Positions 1,135-21,228 of a stretch of DNA of 26,796 nt are shown piece by piece (the stretch's first letter is position 1; every line of letters starts with the position of its first letter). The DNA is from a virus (Duplodnaviria > Heunggongvirae > Uroviricota > Caudoviricetes), in the IMG/VR virus record IMGVR_UViG_3300045988_147492; one strand, 5' to 3'. The notes below the pieces were generated by a model, which was given only the letters and a program-made list of their open reading frames with translations, was not told the origin of the DNA and made no database searches. A program made the position numbers and the translations under genes.

Positions 1135-1698
1135 GTGTCTATCGAACAGTCAGGAAATACCGTAACAAATGGCAACATAATTTCTGGTGATCAGACTAAT
1201 CATATATTCAATTATCCTGTTAAAGGAACTAACCGGGAGATACAGAAACTTTATGAGTGTTTGAAGAGAGGTGATATAGGGGAAGCGGTTCCGGGGTTTT
1301 GTGCTGAACTAGAGCATTATATGTCCCTTCAGCCTGATATTGATGTTCGGGGGTTAGACGCTAAATTACTCGAGAGTAATAGAAAAGATTTGTTGTTTTT
1401 AGCTAAGCAGATGAAGGAAAAAGCGACAAAAGCCATAATGCGTCGCCAGACGTCAAAAACTGCACAAAGAATATTTGTAATAATTTTAGATCAAATTCAT
1501 TTTGATTTTATAACGAAAGTAACACCACTTATAGAAGCGGATAGCTCCAGAGTGATTGTTGATGAGAAAATCGCTTCAATAATTGATGAATTATATTCGT
1601 CTTTGGGAGAGAACTTGCTAGAGCTAACAGCAAAAGATCTCTTGGGATTACTATTTTTTCTGGGTGGCAATTGCCATATAAGGTGGGATAAATGCTAA
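1135..1698 (+). CDS. Predicted alpha-helical protein (187 aa, GTG start) beginning with the same 20-aa repeat motif as the preceding ORF; candidate effector or adaptor component
   Basis: GTG start at 1135 preceded by GAGG at 1124-1127. The N-terminus SIEQSGNTVTNGNIISGDQT matches the tail of the upstream ORF. The 3' end overlaps the next ORF by 7 nt, consistent with an operon. Confidence 0.55.
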   Translation: MSIEQSGNTVTNGNIISGDQTNHIFNYPVKGTNREIQKLYECLKRGDIGEAVPGFCAELEHYMSLQPDIDVRGLDAKLLESNRKDLLFLAKQMKEKATKAIMRRQTSKTAQRIFVIILDQIHFDFITKVTPLIEADSSRVIVDEKIASIIDELYSSLGENLLELTAKDLLGLLFFLGGNCHIRWDKC

Positions 1699-2192
1699 TT
1701 TACCATCCAGCATATGATGCATATCATTGTTTATTCAGAATGATTGCTCTTATAGACCATGTAAATGAAATTGAGGTAGATAAGGCCAGAATTTTGGACT
1801 TCTATCTGCTATTTCCTGCTTTGGTATCTGAAATTAGAATGCCTCATAATTATTCTTCAATGAAGAAAGAAGCGAAGAAGTATTCTAATATATATCGGGA
1901 TCCTATTAATGTTAGATCTACATTCAGAGATATGTATGAAATTCAAATGGCAGCAATAAGATGTCTTGCAGCTACTGGGTTGGTTGAGATGGATTGTCTT
2001 GAGAAAAACATTATAAAGAGAACAGATAAGTCTGTTCCAGATGGCTTATTACTTTCTATTAATAATTTTATTAATACGAATAAAACTATTAATACATTTA
2101 TCATAGATACACTATCTAAATTCCATTTGGTTGGAAAAGATGGTTTAAAAGATAGAACGAAGTTAATGGAGTTTAGATATGACTATTCTTAA
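1692..2192 (+). CDS. Small helical protein (166 aa), translationally coupled between the upstream ORF and the ATPase; candidate middle or accessory component
   Basis: ATG at 1692 with AGGTGGG at about 1679-1685. It overlaps the upstream ORF by 7 nt and the downstream ATPase by 14 nt. Composition is AT-rich like the rest of the cassette. Confidence 0.6.
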   Translation: MLIYHPAYDAYHCLFRMIALIDHVNEIEVDKARILDFYLLFPALVSEIRMPHNYSSMKKEAKKYSNIYRDPINVRSTFRDMYEIQMAAIRCLAATGLVEMDCLEKNIIKRTDKSVPDGLLLSINNFINTNKTINTFIIDTLSKFHLVGKDGLKDRTKLMEFRYDYS

Positions 2193-4116
2193 TCCATCTT
2201 TTTTTGTTAGTAAATTAAAAGTTTTCCAAGCTGGGCATGAAGCATTTAGCTGTGTTTTCCATAAAGGGGTAAATGTAATAAGGGGGCGAAATAGCTCTGG
2301 CAAAACTACTGTTATGGATCTTTTAGCATTTTCACTTGGTGCTGAAAATATTAGCTTGAAACCAACAGCTCTTTTATGTTCATTTACCATGGTTGAAGTG
2401 CTTTTGAATAATAATCTTGCCTGTTTTAAGCGGGAGATAAGTTCAGAATCCATGCGGCCGTTGAGTATTTTTTGGGGCTCGATGGATAAAGCTCTTAACT
2501 CATCACCGAGTCAGTGGCAAACTTATCCTTTTAAGCGTTCAGAAAAATCACTGAGTTTTTCTCAGGTAATTCTAAATGCTTTGGATATGCCTCTAGCTCA
2601 AGGAGAGGGTGCTTCAATTTTAACAATGCATCAAATCCTACGTGTATTATATGCAGATCAGCCATCTCTTCATAGTCCTATATTTAGGAACGATAATTTT
2701 GATAGAGCTCTAACACGAGAGACTATTGGTGATTATTTATGTGGTATATTTGATGACAAACTTTATAGCTCTTTGATTAGGCTTAAACAGGTTGATGCTG
2801 AACTTTCGACAAAAATTGTTGAGCTGAAAAGCATATTTAAAGTTCTTGGACGCTCTGGGCAATCGCAGCATGTAAGTTTTATTGACGATAAAATAAAAGA
2901 GCTAAGAGAGAAGAAAGAAAAGATCAATGGAGAGCTTATCTCTCTCAAAGAGAGTAATAACTCTTCTGTTAATGATAAAAATGCTGATAAAACTAAAACT
3001 AACAACCTTCGAAAAAATTTAAATAAAGCGAAGGAAGAAGAAGTAAAAAATATTGACAGTATCCATATGTTAGAAATGGAGATAGCTGACTCTGAAATGT
3101 TCATTAATGAGTTAGAATCCAGATTGCGCTCTCTTAATGAATCAAGTATTGCCAGAGACTATTTTAGCAACGTTAAATTTCAATTTTGTCCCAGTTGTTT
3201 AAGTGAGTTGAATATTTCCTCTGAAAATGAGTGCTCATTATGTAAAAATCACGCGCCAGAGGGTAGTGATGCTCCTCAATTATTAAGGATGAAAAATGAG
3301 ATTTCTATCCAATTAAAAGAATCCAGAGATCTTCTTGAGCATAATTATGTAAAACTGAGAGAGCTTAAGAGCCAATCTCCTGCTTTAAAGCAAAAAGTGC
3401 GAGATTTAATTCGTGAATATGAAGAAGTCTCTAAGGTTTGGGAAAATGCCTATGAAATAGAGTTTGAAACTCTTACTAAGGCTCTGGGACGTGTTGAAGA
3501 AGAAATTAAACAGGCTTGTGAATTACAAAAACTTAGTGATGTAATATCTGATTTGCAAAAAGATCGTGATAGTCTGCAGTCAGAGAAGGAGAGATTGTCC
3601 TCTTTAATTGAATCTTTGGAGAGTAAAGAGGAATATAGGAAGAAGGATATTTCTAAAACTATAGAAAACATTATGAAAAGACTTCTTAAAAAAGATCTTC
3701 CATTGCAGACTGAATTTATTGATCCTAGAAAAGTTAATTTTAGCTTTGCCGATAATACTGTTTATGTAAATGGGTCTAAGTATTTTTCAGAAAGTTCAGC
3801 AGTTGTATTAAGACATCTCTTTCATTTAGCATTGTTAACTGCAAGTATTGAAAAAAAATACATGAGATTACCTCGTTTCCTAATGCTTGATGGAATTGAC
3901 GATGGTGGAATGGAGAAAGAGCGCAGTCACAATCTGCAGAAAATAATAGTACAAGAAACTCAATCGTATCAATATGATTTTCAAATAATTTATGCTACAT
4001 CGGAGATTAATCCAGAATATGAAAATACCGATTTGATTGTTGGTCGATATTTTAATCCAGATGATAAATCATTAAAGATAAATTATACCGCTCTTGATAA
4101 AGATTTATTGAACTAA
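2179..4116 (+). CDS. SMC/Rad50-like ABC ATPase (645 aa): N-terminal Walker A, long central coiled coil with a CxxC-x11-CxxC zinc-hook-like motif, C-terminal signature-like and Walker B/D-loop/H-loop region; no nuclease domain
   Basis: Walker A GRNSSGKT at residues 36-43 (nt 2284-2307). A Lys/Glu/Leu-rich heptad-like region spans roughly residues 190-520 and produces the antisense low-complexity ORFs at 2763-3104 and 3450-3671. Cysteines C337, C340, C352 and C355 lie at nt 3187-3243. Walker-B-like FLMLDGIDDGG sits near residue 567, followed by ERSHNL. ATG at 2179 with GGAG 8 nt upstream. Confidence 0.8.
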   Translation: MTILNPSFFVSKLKVFQAGHEAFSCVFHKGVNVIRGRNSSGKTTVMDLLAFSLGAENISLKPTALLCSFTMVEVLLNNNLACFKREISSESMRPLSIFWGSMDKALNSSPSQWQTYPFKRSEKSLSFSQVILNALDMPLAQGEGASILTMHQILRVLYADQPSLHSPIFRNDNFDRALTRETIGDYLCGIFDDKLYSSLIRLKQVDAELSTKIVELKSIFKVLGRSGQSQHVSFIDDKIKELREKKEKINGELISLKESNNSSVNDKNADKTKTNNLRKNLNKAKEEEVKNIDSIHMLEMEIADSEMFINELESRLRSLNESSIARDYFSNVKFQFCPSCLSELNISSENECSLCKNHAPEGSDAPQLLRMKNEISIQLKESRDLLEHNYVKLRELKSQSPALKQKVRDLIREYEEVSKVWENAYEIEFETLTKALGRVEEEIKQACELQKLSDVISDLQKDRDSLQSEKERLSSLIESLESKEEYRKKDISKTIENIMKRLLKKDLPLQTEFIDPRKVNFSFADNTVYVNGSKYFSESSAVVLRHLFHLALLTASIEKKYMRLPRFLMLDGIDDGGMEKERSHNLQKIIVQETQSYQYDFQIIYATSEINPEYENTDLIVGRYFNPDDKSLKINYTALDKDLLN

Positions 4117-16110: not shown

Positions 16111-18360
16111 ATGAGCACAAAATTCAGAACCGTTATCACCACTGCCGGTGCAGCAAAGCTGGCAGCGGCAACCGCACCGGGAGGGCGGAAGGTCAACATT
16201 ACCACGATGGCCGTCGGGGATGGCGGTGGTAAATTGCCTGTCCCGGATGCCGGACAGACCGGGCTTATCCATGAAGTCTGGCGACATGCGCTGAACAAAA
16301 TCAGCCAGGACAAACGAAACAGTAATTATATTATCGCAGAGCTGGTTATTCCGCCGGAGGTGGGCGGTTTCTGGATGCGTGAGCTTGGCCTGTACGATGA
16401 TGCTGGAACGTTAATTGCTGTGGCGAACATGGCCGAAAGTTATAAGCCTGCCCTTGCCGAAGGCTCAGGGCGTTCGCAGACCTGCCGCATGGTCATCATC
16501 GTCAGCAGTGTGGCCTCAGTGGCGCTGACCATTGACACCACAACGGTGATGGCGACGCAGGATTACGTTGATGACAAAATTGCAGAGCACGAACAGTCAC
16601 GACGTCACCCGGACGCCTCGCTGACCGCAAAAGGTTTTACTCAGTTAAGCAGTGCGACCAACAGCACGTCTGAAACACTGGCCGCAACGCCGAAAGCGGT
16701 AAAGGCCGCTTATGATCTTGCTAACGGGAAATATACCGCGCAGGATGCCACCACAGCGCGAAAAGGCCTTGTCCAGCTCAGTAGCGCCACCAATAGCGAT
16801 TCTGAAACGCTTGCGGCAACGCCAAAGGCGGTAAAGGCAGCATATGACCTCGCTAACGGGAAATATACCGCACAGGATGCCACCACCGCGCGAAAAGGTC
16901 TTGTCCAGCTAAGTAGCGCCACCAACAGCGATTCTGAAACGCTGGCTGCAACGCCAAAGGCGGTTAAGACAGCGTATGACCTTGCTAACGGGAAATACAC
17001 TGCACAGGATGCCACCACCGCGCGGAAAGGCCTTGTCCAGCTCAGTAGCGCCACCAACAGTGATTCTGAAACGCAGGCCGCAACACCAAAAGCGGTGAAG
17101 TCTGCCTATGACAATGCTGAAAAACGTCTTCAGAAAGATCAGAACGGTGCGGATATTCCTGATAAAGGACGCTTCCTGAGTAACATTAATGTTTACAGCA
17201 AAGGTGAAGTGGATAAGAAAAAGGGAATGCGAAAGTATTCGTTTGCAGCCCCTGCAAATGTCGTTGCCGGGAAGTGGTATCCCGTTATCTTTCGCCGTGC
17301 TGCCAGCCTTTCAGGAGAAATGGCATCCCGCGTCGTTATTTCCACTGGTTGTTATAACAGCGATTATGTAATGAATAACTGCGAGTTTAATGGCATGGTT
17401 ATGCCCGGAGGCTGGACTGATCGTGGTTCATATGCGGCAGGTTATTTCTGGACGTATCAGACTAATGAGCGTTCAATCCATTCCATTGTTACAAGCCTGA
17501 AAGATGATGATGTATGTAGTGTTTTTTATGTTGAAGCCAGAGCTTTCCCTGTGCAAATTCTTGCAGAGGAAGGGCTAACGGTTATTGTTCCGACAGAGGA
17601 TTATGTCGTCGGTCAAACGACATATAAGTGGGGGGCAACTAATCCTGCTACAGAAAGCACGAACGCACAGGCTATTCTGGATTTTAAAAATGGGCGCGGT
17701 TATTACTGCTCACATCCATTTATTTCCAGCCTTTCGGGAAATGCTGCAACAGCAACGAAGTTAGCGAACGCAAGAAATATTAATGGTGTCAGATTTGATG
17801 GCTCTGCTGATATAAATATTAATACACTGGTATCCAGAAACCGTGTTACTGCATTAGGTGGGAGCGTAAAGGGGACACCAGGTATTCAGATGTATGAGGC
17901 ATACAACAATGGCTACCCAACAGCCTATGGTAATGTGCTTCATCTCACTGGCGTAACCGCAGTAGGAGAGGGTGAGTTACTTATTGGCTGGAGTGGAACC
18001 AGCGGTGCTCATGCTCCGGCATATATTCGCTCCCGACGAGATACCACAGATGCTAACTGGTCTGGATGGGCGCAACTATATACAACTGCTCATAAACCCT
18101 CAGCGGGAGATGTTGGTGCATACACCAAAGCTGAATCAGATTCACGTTATGTGAGAGACATGCGGCTGGGCGGTGCATCTACATATAAACCAGCAAATAA
18201 TGGTACTACATGGACGCATCAGGCTCCGCCAGGTTGCGTATATACCGGCATTATTGTTCAGGATACCGGCTCAAACTCTGCCGATAACATTGGTGGCGTA
18301 TATTACAGACCGGTGCAGAAATACATTAACGGGACATGGTATAACGTGGCGCAGGTATAA
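16111..18360 (+). CDS. H: Tail fibre protein H (749 aa) with a conserved N-terminus, about four tandem 40-aa repeats, and an AT-richer divergent C-terminal receptor-binding region
   Basis: The position matches P2 gpH, but the protein is about 80 aa longer than P2 H (recalled as 669 aa). Repeats of TARKGLVQLSSATNSDSETLAATPKAVKAAYDLANGKYTAQDAT are visible in the translation. Confidence 0.9.
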   Translation: MSTKFRTVITTAGAAKLAAATAPGGRKVNITTMAVGDGGGKLPVPDAGQTGLIHEVWRHALNKISQDKRNSNYIIAELVIPPEVGGFWMRELGLYDDAGTLIAVANMAESYKPALAEGSGRSQTCRMVIIVSSVASVALTIDTTTVMATQDYVDDKIAEHEQSRRHPDASLTAKGFTQLSSATNSTSETLAATPKAVKAAYDLANGKYTAQDATTARKGLVQLSSATNSDSETLAATPKAVKAAYDLANGKYTAQDATTARKGLVQLSSATNSDSETLAATPKAVKTAYDLANGKYTAQDATTARKGLVQLSSATNSDSETQAATPKAVKSAYDNAEKRLQKDQNGADIPDKGRFLSNINVYSKGEVDKKKGMRKYSFAAPANVVAGKWYPVIFRRAASLSGEMASRVVISTGCYNSDYVMNNCEFNGMVMPGGWTDRGSYAAGYFWTYQTNERSIHSIVTSLKDDDVCSVFYVEARAFPVQILAEEGLTVIVPTEDYVVGQTTYKWGATNPATESTNAQAILDFKNGRGYYCSHPFISSLSGNAATATKLANARNINGVRFDGSADININTLVSRNRVTALGGSVKGTPGIQMYEAYNNGYPTAYGNVLHLTGVTAVGEGELLIGWSGTSGAHAPAYIRSRRDTTDANWSGWAQLYTTAHKPSAGDVGAYTKAESDSRYVRDMRLGGASTYKPANNGTTWTHQAPPGCVYTGIIVQDTGSNSADNIGGVYYRPVQKYINGTWYNVAQV
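16621..17110 (+). repeat. In-frame tandem repeat array inside H: about 3.8 copies of a 120-bp unit
   Basis: Near-identical 120-bp units with synonymous differences begin at about 16621, 16741, 16861 and 16981; they also generate the spurious antisense ORF at 16710-17057. Confidence 0.85.
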
Positions 18361-18363
18361 TTT

Positions 18364-18891
18364 ATGCAGCATTTGATAAATATAACGGCAGGTAATCCAA
18401 AAACGGTTGAACAATATCAATTGACAAAGAACTTTGATGTCGTCTGGTTTTTTACAGAAGATGGTAAGAACTGGTACGAAGAACAAAAGTATTTTGCTGA
18501 TGACACGATAAAAATAGCGTACGACAAAGATAATATCATCCGCTATGTGGAAAAGGATGTGACAGCTATCAGACCGGATGGATTAAGTGTTGTTGAAGTG
18601 GCGGATATTACTGCTAACCGACGGGCGGACATTTCAGGGAACTGGATGTTTAAGGACGGCAAAGTGATTAAACGCATTTATACGGCAGAGGAATTACAGC
18701 AGCAGGCAGAAATTCGGAAAGCCAGACTTCTTGCAGATGCTGAATCCGTGATTTTGCCGCTGGAGCGCGCGGTCAGACTGAACATGGCAACAGATGAGGA
18801 GCGTAGCCGACTGGAATCATGGGAACGCTACAGCGTTCTGGTCAGTCGTGTGGATCCTGCAAATCCTGAATGGCCGGAAATGCCGCAATAA
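18364..18891 (+). CDS. G: Tail fibre assembly chaperone G (175 aa)
   Basis: Size and position match P2 gpG; the AT-richer composition continues from the 3' part of H, consistent with a swapped H-C-terminus/G module. Confidence 0.88.
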
Positions 18892-19106
18892 GTTGTATTA
18901 GCTTACATATCTATGGCACAGAGTAAAGCCTAATCTGACAGTCCGCTCTGTGCCAGAAGCGGATGTTGTAAAGTTTATTTGGAGAATAATGGTTAGATGA
19001 ACTATGTAGATCATAGCCCTCAAAAGTCAGTAGTCTTACACCATATAAATAGTCATTTAGAGATAGTACACCACCTACAAAAAAAGAGATAAAGCGCGCA
19101 AGCTGC

Positions 19107-19259
19107 ATGAAGATACATAAAATGCTTCATCCTGGACTTGATGTTAGAATTAATGCTGACACTCGCTTTGTAAAAGATAAAGATGATTTTGAGGATGATT
19201 GGTTTATTAATTATCTCCAATGTTTGTTGTTTTGTGATGATAAAGATTCTCTGGATTAA
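19107..19259 (+). CDS. Small acidic hypothetical protein (50 aa) in the G-FI cargo island
   Basis: ATG at 19107 and stop at 19257-19259, about 20 nt before a bidirectional terminator. Too short for the ORF track; no strong Shine-Dalgarno, so coding status is uncertain. Confidence 0.3.
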   Translation: MKIHKMLHPGLDVRINADTRFVKDKDDFEDDWFINYLQCLLFCDDKDSLD

Positions 19260-19277
19260 TAGGATAGTAATTCAATT

Positions 19278-19306
19278 AAAAGAGACCTTATAGAAGGTCT
19301 CTTTTA
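19278..19306. terminator. Bidirectional rho-independent terminator (stem agagacctt / aaggtctct, loop atag, flanked by A-run and T-run)
   Basis: 9-bp perfect stem at 19281-19289 and 19294-19302, with aaa upstream and tttt downstream. It lies between the convergent small plus-strand ORF and the minus-strand membrane protein gene. Confidence 0.6.
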
Positions 19307-19329
19307 AGTTATGGGGGCTGATTTTATAT

Positions 19330-19707
19330 TCAATAGCGTATGCTCATCGAAGAAATAAACTCATAAAATGTAAAGACAGCCAGCAAAAACATACAGATAA
19401 AGATAAGGGAAATAGCACACTTAACTAAGGGCTGAACCCCCCGAGGTGTTCCCCATGGTTTAGACATTTGGGTTATAACCCAAATAAATAAGGCCACAAA
19501 ACAGCAAACACCAGCCAATCCGAGCAGAGATATTATGACAACTCCAAACAGATTTCCAACATCTAGTTTATCTGTTTTTGCAACTAGGGTTAACAAACCA
19601 GCAATAATAGTTGCAATCGATATTCCCGCAATGGTTGTGAGATCGGCGATAACAGCCAGTTTTTCTTTAGTATTTCCTTGAGTAAAAACCTCTAAAATTG
19701 ATTTCAT
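19330..19707 (-). CDS. Integral membrane protein (125 aa, about three transmembrane helices); candidate lysogenic-conversion or superinfection-exclusion cargo at the P2 Z/fun position
   Basis: ATG at 19707 with an AGGTGG Shine-Dalgarno upstream on the minus strand; the track's 129-aa form starts at an upstream GTG. Three hydrophobic segments (LAVIADLTTIAGISIATIIAGLLTLVA, LFGVVIISLLGLAGVCCFVALFIWVI, LVKCAISLIFICMFLLAVFTFYEFI). AT-rich; ends just before the bidirectional terminator. Confidence 0.6.
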   Translation of the reverse strand: MKSILEVFTQGNTKEKLAVIADLTTIAGISIATIIAGLLTLVAKTDKLDVGNLFGVVIISLLGLAGVCCFVALFIWVITQMSKPWGTPRGVQPLVKCAISLIFICMFLLAVFTFYEFISSMSIRY

Positions 19708-19749
19708 GGAAATAACCACCTACTATCGATTATATTCAGGAGCTTTTTA

Positions 19750-19959
19750 TCATAACGATATCAGATAGATAAGGACATTGTAATATTTTGGATGATTTAA
19801 ACTTGCTTTTGTAACTTTAATGTCCACTTTTCGCTCAAAGCAGACTGTCAGATTTGATAGCATTTGGGTTATGTAAATTGTCAGTCGGAAAATGAGTGTG
19901 TACAAATCAGGACAGGCGGGCGAATTGCCCGCATTTTCTTTATCTGTTGTTTCATCCAC
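19750..19959 (-). CDS. Doubtful small ORF (69 aa, GTG start) upstream of the membrane protein gene
   Basis: Present in the ORF track, but it has no clear Shine-Dalgarno and overlaps the predicted FI late-promoter region; it may simply be 5' leader of the membrane-protein transcript. Confidence 0.15.
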   Translation of the reverse strand: MDETTDKENAGNSPACPDLYTLIFRLTIYITQMLSNLTVCFERKVDIKVTKASLNHPKYYNVLIYLISL

Positions 19960-20037
19960 TGACCAGCCAGGTCAAATAGCGTCTCATGCTCTGCACAACA
20001 GAAAATAATTGCACCCATTAACCACGGAGTTAAACGG
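19944..20037 (+). promoter_or_regulatory. Late promoter region for FI-FII-E-T-U-D; candidate activator element CTGTTGTtTCA...CCA at 19944-19965
   Basis: The 22-bp element shares CTGTTGTnTCA...CCA with the element at 7310-7331 upstream of O. It lies about 75-95 bp upstream of the FI ATG; GGAG Shine-Dalgarno at 20026-20029. Confidence 0.35.
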
Positions 20038-21228
20038 ATGAGCGACTATCATCATGGCGTGCAGGTGCTGGAGATTAACGACGGCACCCGCGTCATTTCC
20101 ACTGTATCCACCGCCATTGTCGGCATGGTCTGCACGGCCAGCGATGCGGATGCGGAAACCTTCCCCCTCAATAAACCGGTGCTGATTACCAATGTGCAGA
20201 GCGCAATTGCAAAGGCTGGTAAAAAAGGCACGCTGGCGGCGTCGTTGCAGGCCATCGCTGACCAGTCAAAACCGGTCACCGTTGTTGTGCGCGTGGAAGA
20301 CGGCACCGGCGACGACGAAGAAACGAAACTCGCGCAGACCGTTTCCAATATCATCGGCACCACCGACGAAAACGGTCAGTACACCGGACTGAAAGCCCTG
20401 CTGGCGGCGGAGTCGGTAACCGGTGTTAAACCGCGTATTCTCGGTGTGCCGGGACTGGATACCAAAGAGGTGGCTGTTGCACTGGCATCCGTCTGTCAGA
20501 AGCTGCGCGCTTTCGGATATATCAGCGCATGGGGCTGTAAGACCATTTCCGAGGTGAAAGCCTACCGCCAGAATTTCAGCCAGCGTGAGCTGATGGTCAT
20601 CTGGCCGGATTTCCTCGCATGGGATACGGTCACCAGTACCACCGCCACCGCGTATGCCACCGCCCGTGCGCTGGGTCTGCGCGCTAAAATCGACCAGGAG
20701 CAGGGCTGGCATAAAACGCTGTCCAATGTCGGGGTGAACGGTGTTACCGGCATCAGCGCATCTGTATTCTGGGATTTGCAGGAGTCCGGCACCGATGCTG
20801 ACCTGCTGAACGAGTCAGGCGTCACAACGCTGATTCGCCGTGACGGTTTCCGCTTCTGGGGTAACCGTACCTGCTCTGATGACCCGCTGTTCCTCTTTGA
20901 AAACTACACCCGCACCGCGCAGGTGCTGGCCGACACGATGGCTGAGGCGCACATGTGGGCGGTGGATAAGCCCATCACTGCAACGCTGATTCGCGACATC
21001 GTTGACGGCATCAATGCCAAATTCCGTGAGCTGAAAACAAACGGCTATATCGTGGATGCGACCTGCTGGTTCAGCGAAGAATCCAACGATGCGGAAACCC
21101 TCAAGGCCGGAAAACTGTATATCGACTACGACTATACTCCGGTGCCTCCTCTCGAAAACCTGACCCTGCGCCAGCGTATTACTGATAAATACCTGGCAAA
21201 TCTGGTCACCTCGGTTAACAGCAATTAA
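20038..21228 (+). CDS. FI: Contractile tail sheath protein (396 aa)
   Basis: Size and position match P2 gpFI. Confidence 0.93.
   Translation: MSDYHHGVQVLEINDGTRVISTVSTAIVGMVCTASDADAETFPLNKPVLITNVQSAIAKAGKKGTLAASLQAIADQSKPVTVVVRVEDGTGDDEETKLAQTVSNIIGTTDENGQYTGLKALLAAESVTGVKPRILGVPGLDTKEVAVALASVCQKLRAFGYISAWGCKTISEVKAYRQNFSQRELMVIWPDFLAWDTVTSTTATAYATARALGLRAKIDQEQGWHKTLSNVGVNGVTGISASVFWDLQESGTDADLLNESGVTTLIRRDGFRFWGNRTCSDDPLFLFENYTRTAQVLADTMAEAHMWAVDKPITATLIRDIVDGINAKFRELKTNGYIVDATCWFSEESNDAETLKAGKLYIDYDYTPVPPLENLTLRQRITDKYLANLVTSVNSN

Follow-up and report, generated by a model that had tools for sequence, protein, structure and literature searches.

The DNA analyzed here, a viral record of 26,796 nucleotides (nt) (IMG/VR record IMGVR_UViG_3300045988_147492; hereafter, the window), is 100% identical over its whole length to several E. 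coli strain chromosomes, in which the genes follow the order of a P2-like prophage, i.e. tail protein I, fibre, assembly protein, gap, sheath, and tube. We focused on this gap, which separates gene G, the product of which RefSeq names 'tail fiber assembly protein' in the identical E. coli loci, from the tail sheath gene FI. As stated in an initial annotation made from the sequence alone, the gap (18892-20037; 1,146 bp) is AT-rich and unlike the backbone, with a GC content of 0.33-0.39 across 19000-19900 compared to 0.52-0.60 (about 0.55) in the flanking genes. The same annotation proposed that the gap holds foreign cargo in the slot occupied by Z/fun in phage P2, and this is what we found. In blastn comparisons, window 19819-20200 is 95-96% identical to P2 and to the Yersinia phage L-413C, and the matches on the left side extend to 18980 for P2 (87%) and to 18963 for L-413C (91%), whereas the cargo between these conserved flanks differs, consisting of a 181-amino acid (aa) open reading frame (ORF) on the plus strand in P2 and of yet other cargo in L-413C. 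The position between G and FI is the Z/fun hotspot of P2-like phages, which is variable and rich in defence genes (10.1101/2024.10.15.618418; PMC13586616). The flanks were matched in 1,155 E. coli genomes, and at least 80% of the insert in only 26 of them. By its position, by its composition unlike the backbone, and by its variable content the island belongs to the cargo of this hotspot, and it is one mobile cargo cassette docked in the Z/fun slot of a P2-like prophage (Table 1).

Table 1 Coordinates of the island and its borders in the window, and of recombinase genes in other loci (L numbers are our handles for loci)
Feature	Position	Strand	Description
Gene for a 125-aa inner-membrane protein with three predicted transmembrane helices	19330..19707	-	intact; the only gene of the island read as functional
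Predicted bidirectional intrinsic terminator	19276..19307		perfect 14-bp stem, 4-nt loop, A/T tracts on both sides
Region upstream of the membrane gene	19708..19821	-	candidate -10 element TATGAT at 19749-19754; non-conserved TATAAT at 19729-19734
ATPase pseudogene stump	19023..19259	+	last ~60 codons; frame aligns with the Serratia C-terminus (…VSSLTPYK*SFRDSTPPTKKEIKRASCMKIHKMLH…)
Remnant upstream (promoter-side) region of the lost ATPase gene	18965..19022	+	80-85% identical to L009 7281-7358 and equivalents
Deletion junction	19022..19023		...CTGACTTT / TGAGGG...; intact loci hold 1.6 kb between these points
Boundary site, subtype B, left cassette end	18941..18964	+	GTCCGCT-CTGTGCCAGA-AGCGGAT
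Boundary site, subtype A, right cassette end	19822..19845	-	GTCTGCT-TTGAGCGAAA-AGTGGAC on the minus strand
Gene G, tail fibre assembly protein	18364..18891	+	Pfam Caudo_TAP, 116.6 bits, 1.1e-33; left backbone border
Left backbone flank	18892..18940		kept in P2 and L-413C
Right backbone flank and region upstream of FI	19846..20037	+	common to P2
Gene FI, tail sheath	20038..21228	+	Pfam Phage_sheath_1, Phage_sheath_1C, Gp18_domIII_N; right backbone border
Recombinase genes	L015:2732-3334, L017:2026-2628, L018:7384-7986, L023:4401-5000, L037:9384-9983, L095:5396-5995, L153:7001-7603		inside or beside hairpin-bounded cassettes

The island contains one intact gene and one pseudogene stump. The intact gene on the minus strand matches its initial description as encoding a 125-aa protein with three transmembrane (TM) helices. 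Its ORF begins at an ATG behind an AGGTGG ribosome-binding site, the protein (RefSeq WP_000836023.1, annotated as hypothetical protein) has three Kyte-Doolittle hydropathy peaks (residues about 17-43, 52-80, and 93-117), and an AlphaFold2 model computed with 16 homologues has long helices at residues 13-44, 50-81, and 91-124. The confidence of this model (predicted local distance difference test, 66; predicted template modelling score, 0.36) is such that it shows only the three long helices. Because the loop at residues 81-96 carries a net charge of +3 and that at residues 44-51 a charge of about 0, the protein is predicted to insert in the inner membrane, probably with an N-in/C-out topology, which leaves ~8 residues exposed in each of two periplasmic segments. 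Close relatives have in common the motif GNxKEKLAVIADLxTIxG and the basic cytoplasmic loop SKPWGxPRGVQ, both of which would face the cytoplasm or sit in the membrane. In an alignment of the wider family, the sole invariant residues are D22, G28, and S30, which form an Asp22-x5-Gly28-x-Ser30 motif at the start of TM1; L17 is nearly invariant.

The initial annotation also described a clean bidirectional terminator downstream of the membrane gene, and its predicted properties agree with this description. Position 19276-19307 has the hallmarks of an intrinsic terminator in both directions: the folding energies of its two strands are -17.6 and -17.1 kcal/mol (z = -4.4 and -6.5, with 0 of 200 shuffled sequences as stable), it has TTTTAA on both strands, and in intact cassettes (see below) it sits between two convergent genes. 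Upstream of the membrane gene, a sequence comparison and a relaxed hexamer scan placed the candidate -10 element TATGAT in the block CCTTATCTATCTGATATCGTTATGATAA, which is conserved across genera; the homology of this upstream region to the Yersinia and Pectobacterium copies reaches only ~19783.

The second gene of the initial annotation, a possible 50-aa acidic ORF on the plus strand (19107-19259), exists as an ORF but not, in our reading, as a gene. It lies inside the stump of an ATPase gene and in the same frame: the C-terminus of a 556-aa Serratia ATPase reads ...VSSLTPYKWSSRDSTPATKNEIKRASGMKIHKMLHSALDIRMNADTRFVKDKDDLEDN* and the window frame ...VSSLTPYK*SFRDSTPPTKKEIKRASCMKIHKMLHPGLDVRINADTRFVKDKDDFEDDWF... 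(asterisks, stop codons), an in-frame TAA precedes the ATG of the ORF, and the original stop codon is lost. In addition, the copy in E. coli LS4 has a 1-bp deletion causing a frameshift as well as an extra stop codon. Because of the in-frame homology, the upstream stop codon, and the disruption in LS4, we ruled out that the ORF is a real gene; RefSeq lists it as 'hypothetical protein' in one identical genome.

Derivation of the island from a two-gene cassette

In Serratia marcescens, a homologue of the membrane gene is convergent with the intact gene of the 556-aa ATPase. The same arrangement with identical ends, and 88-92% nucleotide identity, is present in the Serratia locus (L009), in Enterobacter ludwigii (L015-L017), in L018/L019, and in Klebsiella michiganensis (L020, 4862-7359), and we take it to be ancestral: the membrane gene is followed by 126-128 bp including the terminator and then by the convergent ATPase gene, for a total of 2.49 kb (about 2.5 kb). 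The neighbourhoods of the intact cassettes differ, comprising an integrase with IS110, SymE toxins, a relaxase with HEPN_AbiV, and a beta-lactamase with a LysR regulator; the cassette neighbours across loci include HEPN_AbiV, SymE, DUF4145, and a DUF2971-like protein. In blastn comparisons, window 19841-19023 corresponds to L009 4867-5685 (85%) and window 19022-18945 to L009 7281-7358. Because the window matches both sides of the ATPase gene, ~1,595 bp have been lost, including the promoter, the start codon, and ~496 codons. The deletion junction was the same in all P2-like copies examined. The island evidently derives from the two-gene cassette by this single 1,595-bp deletion of the ATPase gene, and we are highly confident of its anatomy and origin as a decayed cassette with one live gene.

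The intact 556-aa protein is a P-loop NTPase with the Walker A motif GRTGAGKS, which sits in the deleted 1,595 bp. It scores 208.9 bits against NCBIfam NF047389 ('P-loop ATPase, Sll1717 family'); the match to Pfam nSTAND1 is borderline at 27.3 bits (cut-off, 27.1), and those to PADLOC PDC-M28C and mad8 are weak. The model of DS-41 ('AAA2'), which is a validated single-gene defence system from the DefensePredictor work (PMC13092281), matched at 55.8 bits (E = 3.7e-15), far below its cut-off of 370 bits. A PDB sequence search with the intact ATPase gave no match, and a literature search for 'Sll1717' gave no paper. The stump is homologous to the C-terminal ~60 residues of this NF047389 member but lacks the Walker A motif, the start codon, and the promoter, and it is no longer an Sll1717-family ATPase.

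We also searched 5,426 complete E. coli genomes with the intact ATPase. There were 23 places covering at least 80% of the query and, among the matches listed, these had 73% nucleotide identity and were all on plasmids; a further 27 chromosomal places at 80-90% identity we take to be the stump. An intact ATPase beside the membrane gene in E. coli was rejected on the basis of the plasmid location of the high-coverage matches listed and of one inspected locus that has no membrane-gene neighbour. Homologues of the cassette ATPase at 73% nucleotide identity are carried by 24 E. coli plasmids. In the inspected locus, on the E. coli plasmid pSYM5/6 (L013, 4001-5665), the homologue has a ParDE-type toxin-antitoxin module and a tyrosine recombinase as neighbours, and it appears truncated next to an IS3 element.

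Taken by itself, the island is a modest finding, i.e. one more variable cargo in a hotspot known for lysogenic-conversion and defence genes, the gene content of which is now correctly read.

Boundary hairpin sites and the cassettes they bracket

The cargo is bracketed by a 32-nt inverted repeat (18932-18963/19823-19854), for which zero matches are expected by chance. Within each arm is a 24-nt site of the form GTCCGCT-N10-AGCGGAC, of which there are two subtypes that differ in the loop, namely A (TGAGCGA) and B (TGTGCCA); site A folds at -10.4 kcal/mol. The intact cassettes in Serratia, Enterobacter, and Klebsiella cease to match the window at 18943-18945 inside the B site and, on the right, at 19829-19855. 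Over five contexts, the cassette ends agree within a few nucleotides, with the inner arm and the loop travelling with the cassette and the outer ~4 nt varying by context. The P2 Z/fun insert and the L-413C insert are flanked by the same hairpin units. Thus, one unit occurs in unrelated contexts with its homology ending in short sites, as is characteristic of a site-specific cassette, and by these comparisons the island would be one.

To describe the distribution of the sites, we scanned IMG/VR with the exact B-unit pattern and obtained at least 120 loci (L033-L152); among the 120 listed, 75 do not resemble any of the window's P2 structural genes. This survey was seeded on the B pattern, and IMG/VR contigs are redundant. 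Sites are also present in L002, L004, L005, L032, L037, L098, and L153. Over all loci collected, we classified 135 consecutive site pairs. In 96 pairs, a plus-strand A site is followed by a minus-strand B site at a distance of 541-5,779 bp (median 1,442), which we read as a cassette, and in 19 pairs a minus-strand A site is followed after 12-19 nt by a plus-strand B site, which we read as a junction between cassettes; the other 20 pairs had varied spacing and were left unclassified. The site finder detected no site in 533 kb of shuffled sequence.

The cassettes form 42 sequence clusters, giving at least 42 cassette types, many of which are validated defence systems, and both P2-like and unrelated elements carry them. 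Among their ORFs are PD-T7-1 (3), PD-T7-5 (3), PDC-S33 (2), DarT/DarG, PD-T4-2_A, and NsnA as well as HEPN, TIR, RelA_SpoT, GmrSD, and Macro proteins, and the longest units hold some metabolic genes; the identifiable cargo is dominated by defence genes. No RNA family was found by Rfam on either strand of 18700-20200 at E <= 1, and therefore the hairpin sites are not an RNA or repeat family described in Rfam. Compensatory changes in the stems are few, and it is the stem sequence that is conserved. Although not conclusive, this is more in line with protein-binding sites than with generic elements recognized by structure only.

The membrane protein and its possible function

Profile searches with the membrane protein, as suggested in the initial annotation together with a topology prediction, gave a mixed outcome: the three helices stood and an N-in/C-out orientation could be assigned, whereas the only significant match was to PHROG phrog_4155 (8e-83), a family of unknown function. 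The best Pfam match had E = 0.11 and was not significant, PADLOC (PADLOC-DB v2) and NCBIfam gave no families, and a PDB sequence search with the profile of the membrane family gave no match. The accessions of the protein are not among the DefensePredictor supplement entries.

The family is compact and rare. It comprises 21 clusters at 90% identity, and wherever the source names the organism it is one of the Enterobacterales; a profile search of 1.84 billion representatives gave 56 members at 50% identity, most of which are 112-135 aa long and matched nearly end to end, with a few fragments of 69-81 aa and one protein of 183 aa. A scan of genome contigs, which was too insensitive, detected one species representative only, Pectobacterium zantedeschiae. 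In the 5,426 complete E. coli genomes, the membrane gene is present in 64, always on the chromosome, and it is full length in 63 of these. A 49%-identical homologue (L157:5001-5378) lies between gpA and the portal gene, i.e. in the old/tin hotspot, of another P2-like prophage, from which it follows that the family is cargo in both P2 hotspots; no hairpin sites were found around this homologue.

The E. coli copies occur in three different arrangements that lack the ATPase; strain KSC207 is an example of the window type. In one variant of the P2 slot (variant 3), present in 36 E. coli genomes including ATCC 11775, the membrane gene is accompanied by a 200-aa tyrosine recombinase and a DUF5677 protein, with the recombination breakpoint inside the terminator (window 19289). 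The window-type remnant is present in about 18-20 E. coli genomes together with a second cassette encoding a DUF6650 protein. This protein is 158 aa long and matches phrog_29952 (L002:3253-3729 in E. coli LS4; L032:3082-3558). In the DefensePredictor supplement, one listed E. coli protein (WP_010377994.1) has DUF6650 as its Pfam match, and residues 169-292 of SMEK, a validated protein, match DUF6650 by HHpred (0.88).

Outside E. coli, the membrane gene is also found without the ATPase. A Yersinia enterocolitica homologue (L010; 79% amino acid identity) and a 117-aa form in L021/L022 each have a B-like boundary site directly after the gene, which makes them single-gene cassettes; the genes for a 276-aa DUF2971-like protein and a TolA-like protein adjoin these units but fall outside the sites. 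In Pectobacterium, the membrane gene adjoins unrelated genes. Because single-gene cassettes exist and other neighbours occur, the evidence leans towards the membrane gene being an autonomous module. Pairwise ratios of non-synonymous to synonymous substitution rates (dN/dS) across genera are 0.15-0.5, supporting that the gene encodes a real protein under purifying selection. Between two ATPase-less E. coli variants, the membrane gene diverges by 2.6% compared to 5.2% in the upstream region and 6.3% in the stump (p = 0.02).

Our working hypothesis, towards which we lean slightly, is that the island is a decayed site-bounded cassette in which the remaining gene encodes a stand-alone exclusion-type anti-phage membrane protein. 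Specifically, the prophage would express the protein during lysogeny as a stand-alone anti-phage factor, and the protein would act at the cytoplasmic membrane by an exclusion-type block of genome entry. The anti-phage part of this hypothesis is based on the hotspot, the cassette family, the neighbours, and the recurrence in both P2 hotspots, and we also counted the distant relation of the lost ATPase to the DS-41 model (PMC13092281) toward an association with defence. Considered separately, an anti-phage role of any kind has, in our estimate, a little less than an even chance, and an exclusion-type mechanism specifically is a tentative suggestion that we regard as doubtful. We favour exclusion over an orphaned suicide effector because the gene is autonomous, is without a sensor, and is tolerated alone. 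Phage-encoded inner-membrane superinfection-exclusion proteins such as T4 Imm, P22 SieA, and HK97 gp15 are likewise small multi-TM stand-alone proteins without enzymatic domains, the accessory genes of which are expressed independently of structural operons; the likeness is by description only, as the membrane protein has no match in PHROGs, Pfam, PADLOC, or PDB beyond its own family.

Several observations weigh against this hypothesis. The searches revealed no homology of the membrane protein to characterized exclusion or defence proteins. A standard scan upstream of the gene identified no strong sigma-70 site. A remote member of the family (38% identity) lies between leuB-like and asd-like housekeeping genes and not in a mobile element. 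The convergent order of the two genes in the intact cassette does not prove that their products ever worked together. Moreover, the two ATPase-less variants differ at 10 positions in the membrane gene, seven non-synonymous and three synonymous (dN/dS 0.75), which is compatible with relaxed constraint after loss of a partner, and the synonymous divergence in the gene (0.034) is below the divergence of the flanks, so that its slower divergence could reflect mosaic recombination rather than selection.

We considered that the protein might have a role other than defence, e.g. in host fitness or phage physiology as a regulator, a factor in stress or ion homeostasis, or an accessory of lysis timing. 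The complete lack of a defence annotation in the family and the remote member among housekeeping genes fit such a role, as do the toxins and partition systems that P2 hotspots also hold (PMC9122126) and the metabolic genes in some site-bounded cassettes. However, every close relative of the membrane gene has a mobile or defence-island setting, most of the cargo that could be identified in the cassette family consists of defence genes, and the gene is opposite in strand to the late operon and away from the lysis genes, making a non-defence role unlikely, if the most credible of the alternatives. The weak similarity to holin and hemolysin families in PHROGs (E = 0.13-0.16; phrog_1299, holin, E = 0.16), which could be taken in its favour, is far from significant. 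We also rejected that the protein is a holin because there is no significant profile match and the gene stands by itself among tail genes of the other strand, outside the lysis cassette.

Alternatively, the protein might work only with the Sll1717-family ATPase, e.g. as an anchor or a membrane-disrupting effector that the NTPase triggers, and be a non-functional leftover that is intact because the deletion is recent. The fixed spacing and common terminator in at least four independent contexts speak for such a partnership, NTPase-plus-TM designs are common in abortive-infection systems (discussed in PMC9122126), and the excess of non-synonymous changes between the ATPase-less variants and the lack of a strong promoter would be expected of a leftover. 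Against this, the gene stands alone in Yersinia and L021 and among unrelated neighbours in Pectobacterium with a dN/dS of about 0.2 across these lineages, it has stayed intact in nearly all E. coli genomes that carry it and in all three ATPase-less arrangements, and it is less divergent than the adjacent stump. Also, the two genes point towards each other and are not transcribed together, E. coli plasmids carry Sll1717-family ATPases by themselves, and the DS-41 system consists of one gene. We therefore consider an orphaned effector or partner improbable.

Finally, the original proposal of two real convergent genes, with the membrane protein acting by receptor masking or by exclusion of T5-like phages in the manner of Z/fun, has in its favour the common slot, the existence of both ORFs, and the single RefSeq entry for the 50-aa ORF, but it is very improbable given that this ORF is a piece of the ATPase stump broken in the LS4 lineage, that the membrane protein had no blastp match to the 181-aa P2 slot ORF at E <= 10, and that masking of an outer-membrane receptor is implausible for a protein with so little periplasmic exposure and with conserved motifs predicted in the cytoplasm or the membrane. 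We know of no T5-exclusion phenotype for the membrane gene. The likeness to P2 Z/fun is one of place, i.e. the identical position between G and FI with the same flanks, including the two hairpin sites and a hairpin upstream of FI, and AT-rich foreign cargo in both, whereas the cargo proteins are unrelated and encoded on opposite strands.

A candidate recombinase, possible cassette exchange, and neighbouring features

The site grammar, together with a small recombinase, may be a more valuable lead than the island. The tyrosine recombinase of 200 aa found inside or beside hairpin-bounded cassettes (Table 1) consists of the catalytic domain only (PF00589, 69.7 bits) and is 91-99% identical between loci; its best NCBIfam matches are XerA/XerC, far below their cut-offs. 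The gene is present in 848 of the 5,426 complete E. coli genomes (about 16%), including Nissle 1917 and ATCC 25922. In Nissle 1917, the recombinase (WP_001305361.1) and two other genes lie between an A site and a B site, and one of these two (WP_001313577.1) is a predicted novel defence gene in the DefensePredictor supplement. We rejected that the recombinase sits on a fixed platform as in integrons because its location varies: it was found inside cassettes in L037, L095, and L123, at junctions in L017 and L018, and as a fused part of the membrane-gene cassette in L023.

Because the link between recombinase and sites is one of co-occurrence, the recombinase is a candidate for the agent of exchange. 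We speculate, while considering it rather doubtful, that the hairpin sites are the recombination sites of an uncharacterized cassette-exchange system in which the 200-aa recombinase swaps defence cassettes between docking sites. The two subtypes would be heterospecific by virtue of their central regions and are always inverted around a cargo unit, and the docking sites would be in the P2 G-FI slot, other prophages, chromosomal islands, and elements resembling integrative and conjugative elements. In the Discussion of a 2026 study, the mechanism that moves defence genes between such elements is described as unresolved (PMC13586616). If true, the exchange system would provide the mechanism by which P2-like phages turn over their defence genes so rapidly. 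Similarly, if the sites are substrates of the recombinase, this would explain the exchange of defence genes between otherwise non-homologous mobile elements and provide a sequence signature for finding new defence cassettes. Part of this proposal may already be known, and its priority is uncertain: Nilsson et al. in 2004 (Mol Biol Evol 21:1) reportedly proposed site-specific recombination at this locus. Among the papers citing that work, we found no description of its repeats.

The cassettes resemble the attC-bounded cassettes of integrons and pdif modules, the latter being Xer-site-bounded modules on Acinetobacter plasmids. As in these, promoter-poor units of one to three genes are bracketed by short imperfect palindromes, arrays have site-site junctions (here 12-19 nt), the same unit occurs in unrelated replicons, and a tyrosine recombinase is associated. 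In contrast, GTCCGCT-N10-AGCGGAC with inverted A and B subtypes is neither the attC nor the dif consensus, and in place of IntI there is a recombinase with a catalytic domain only. We rejected that the island is an integron cassette since the R''/L''-L'/R' boxes of attC (GTTRRRY core) and IntI are both lacking.

With respect to the borders of the island, the left flank has a 5' arm (18914-18923; TGGCACAGAG) the pairing partner of which is part of the B site (18946-18955; CTCTGTGCCA), and this inverted repeat folds at -18.6 kcal/mol (z = -2.0). In the right flank, a terminator scan identified a terminator-like GC-rich hairpin (19916-19932; -14.7 kcal/mol) followed by a T-run upstream of FI, which is common to P2; by homology to P2, this flank should also contain a late promoter.

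The window has a first AT-rich island (1135-4116, plus strand; GC content 0.33-0.36) upstream of the portal gene, in the gpA-Q hotspot. It encodes a 645-aa LmuB-like SMC/AAA ATPase (PADLOC LmuB, 4.5e-47) preceded by two ORFs of 187 and 166 aa with no PADLOC match, and on this basis it resembles a Lamassu-type defence system. It is not flanked by hairpin sites of the GTCCGCT-N10-AGCGGAC kind. Lastly, the tail-fibre gene H (16111-18360) contains several near-identical tandem repeats of ~45 aa at 16600-17100 (…KGLVQLSSATNSDSETLAATPKAVKAAYDLANGKYTAQDATTAR…). The GC content falls to 0.43-0.48 toward the 3' end of gene H and through gene G, and this drop suggests a swapped receptor-binding module.

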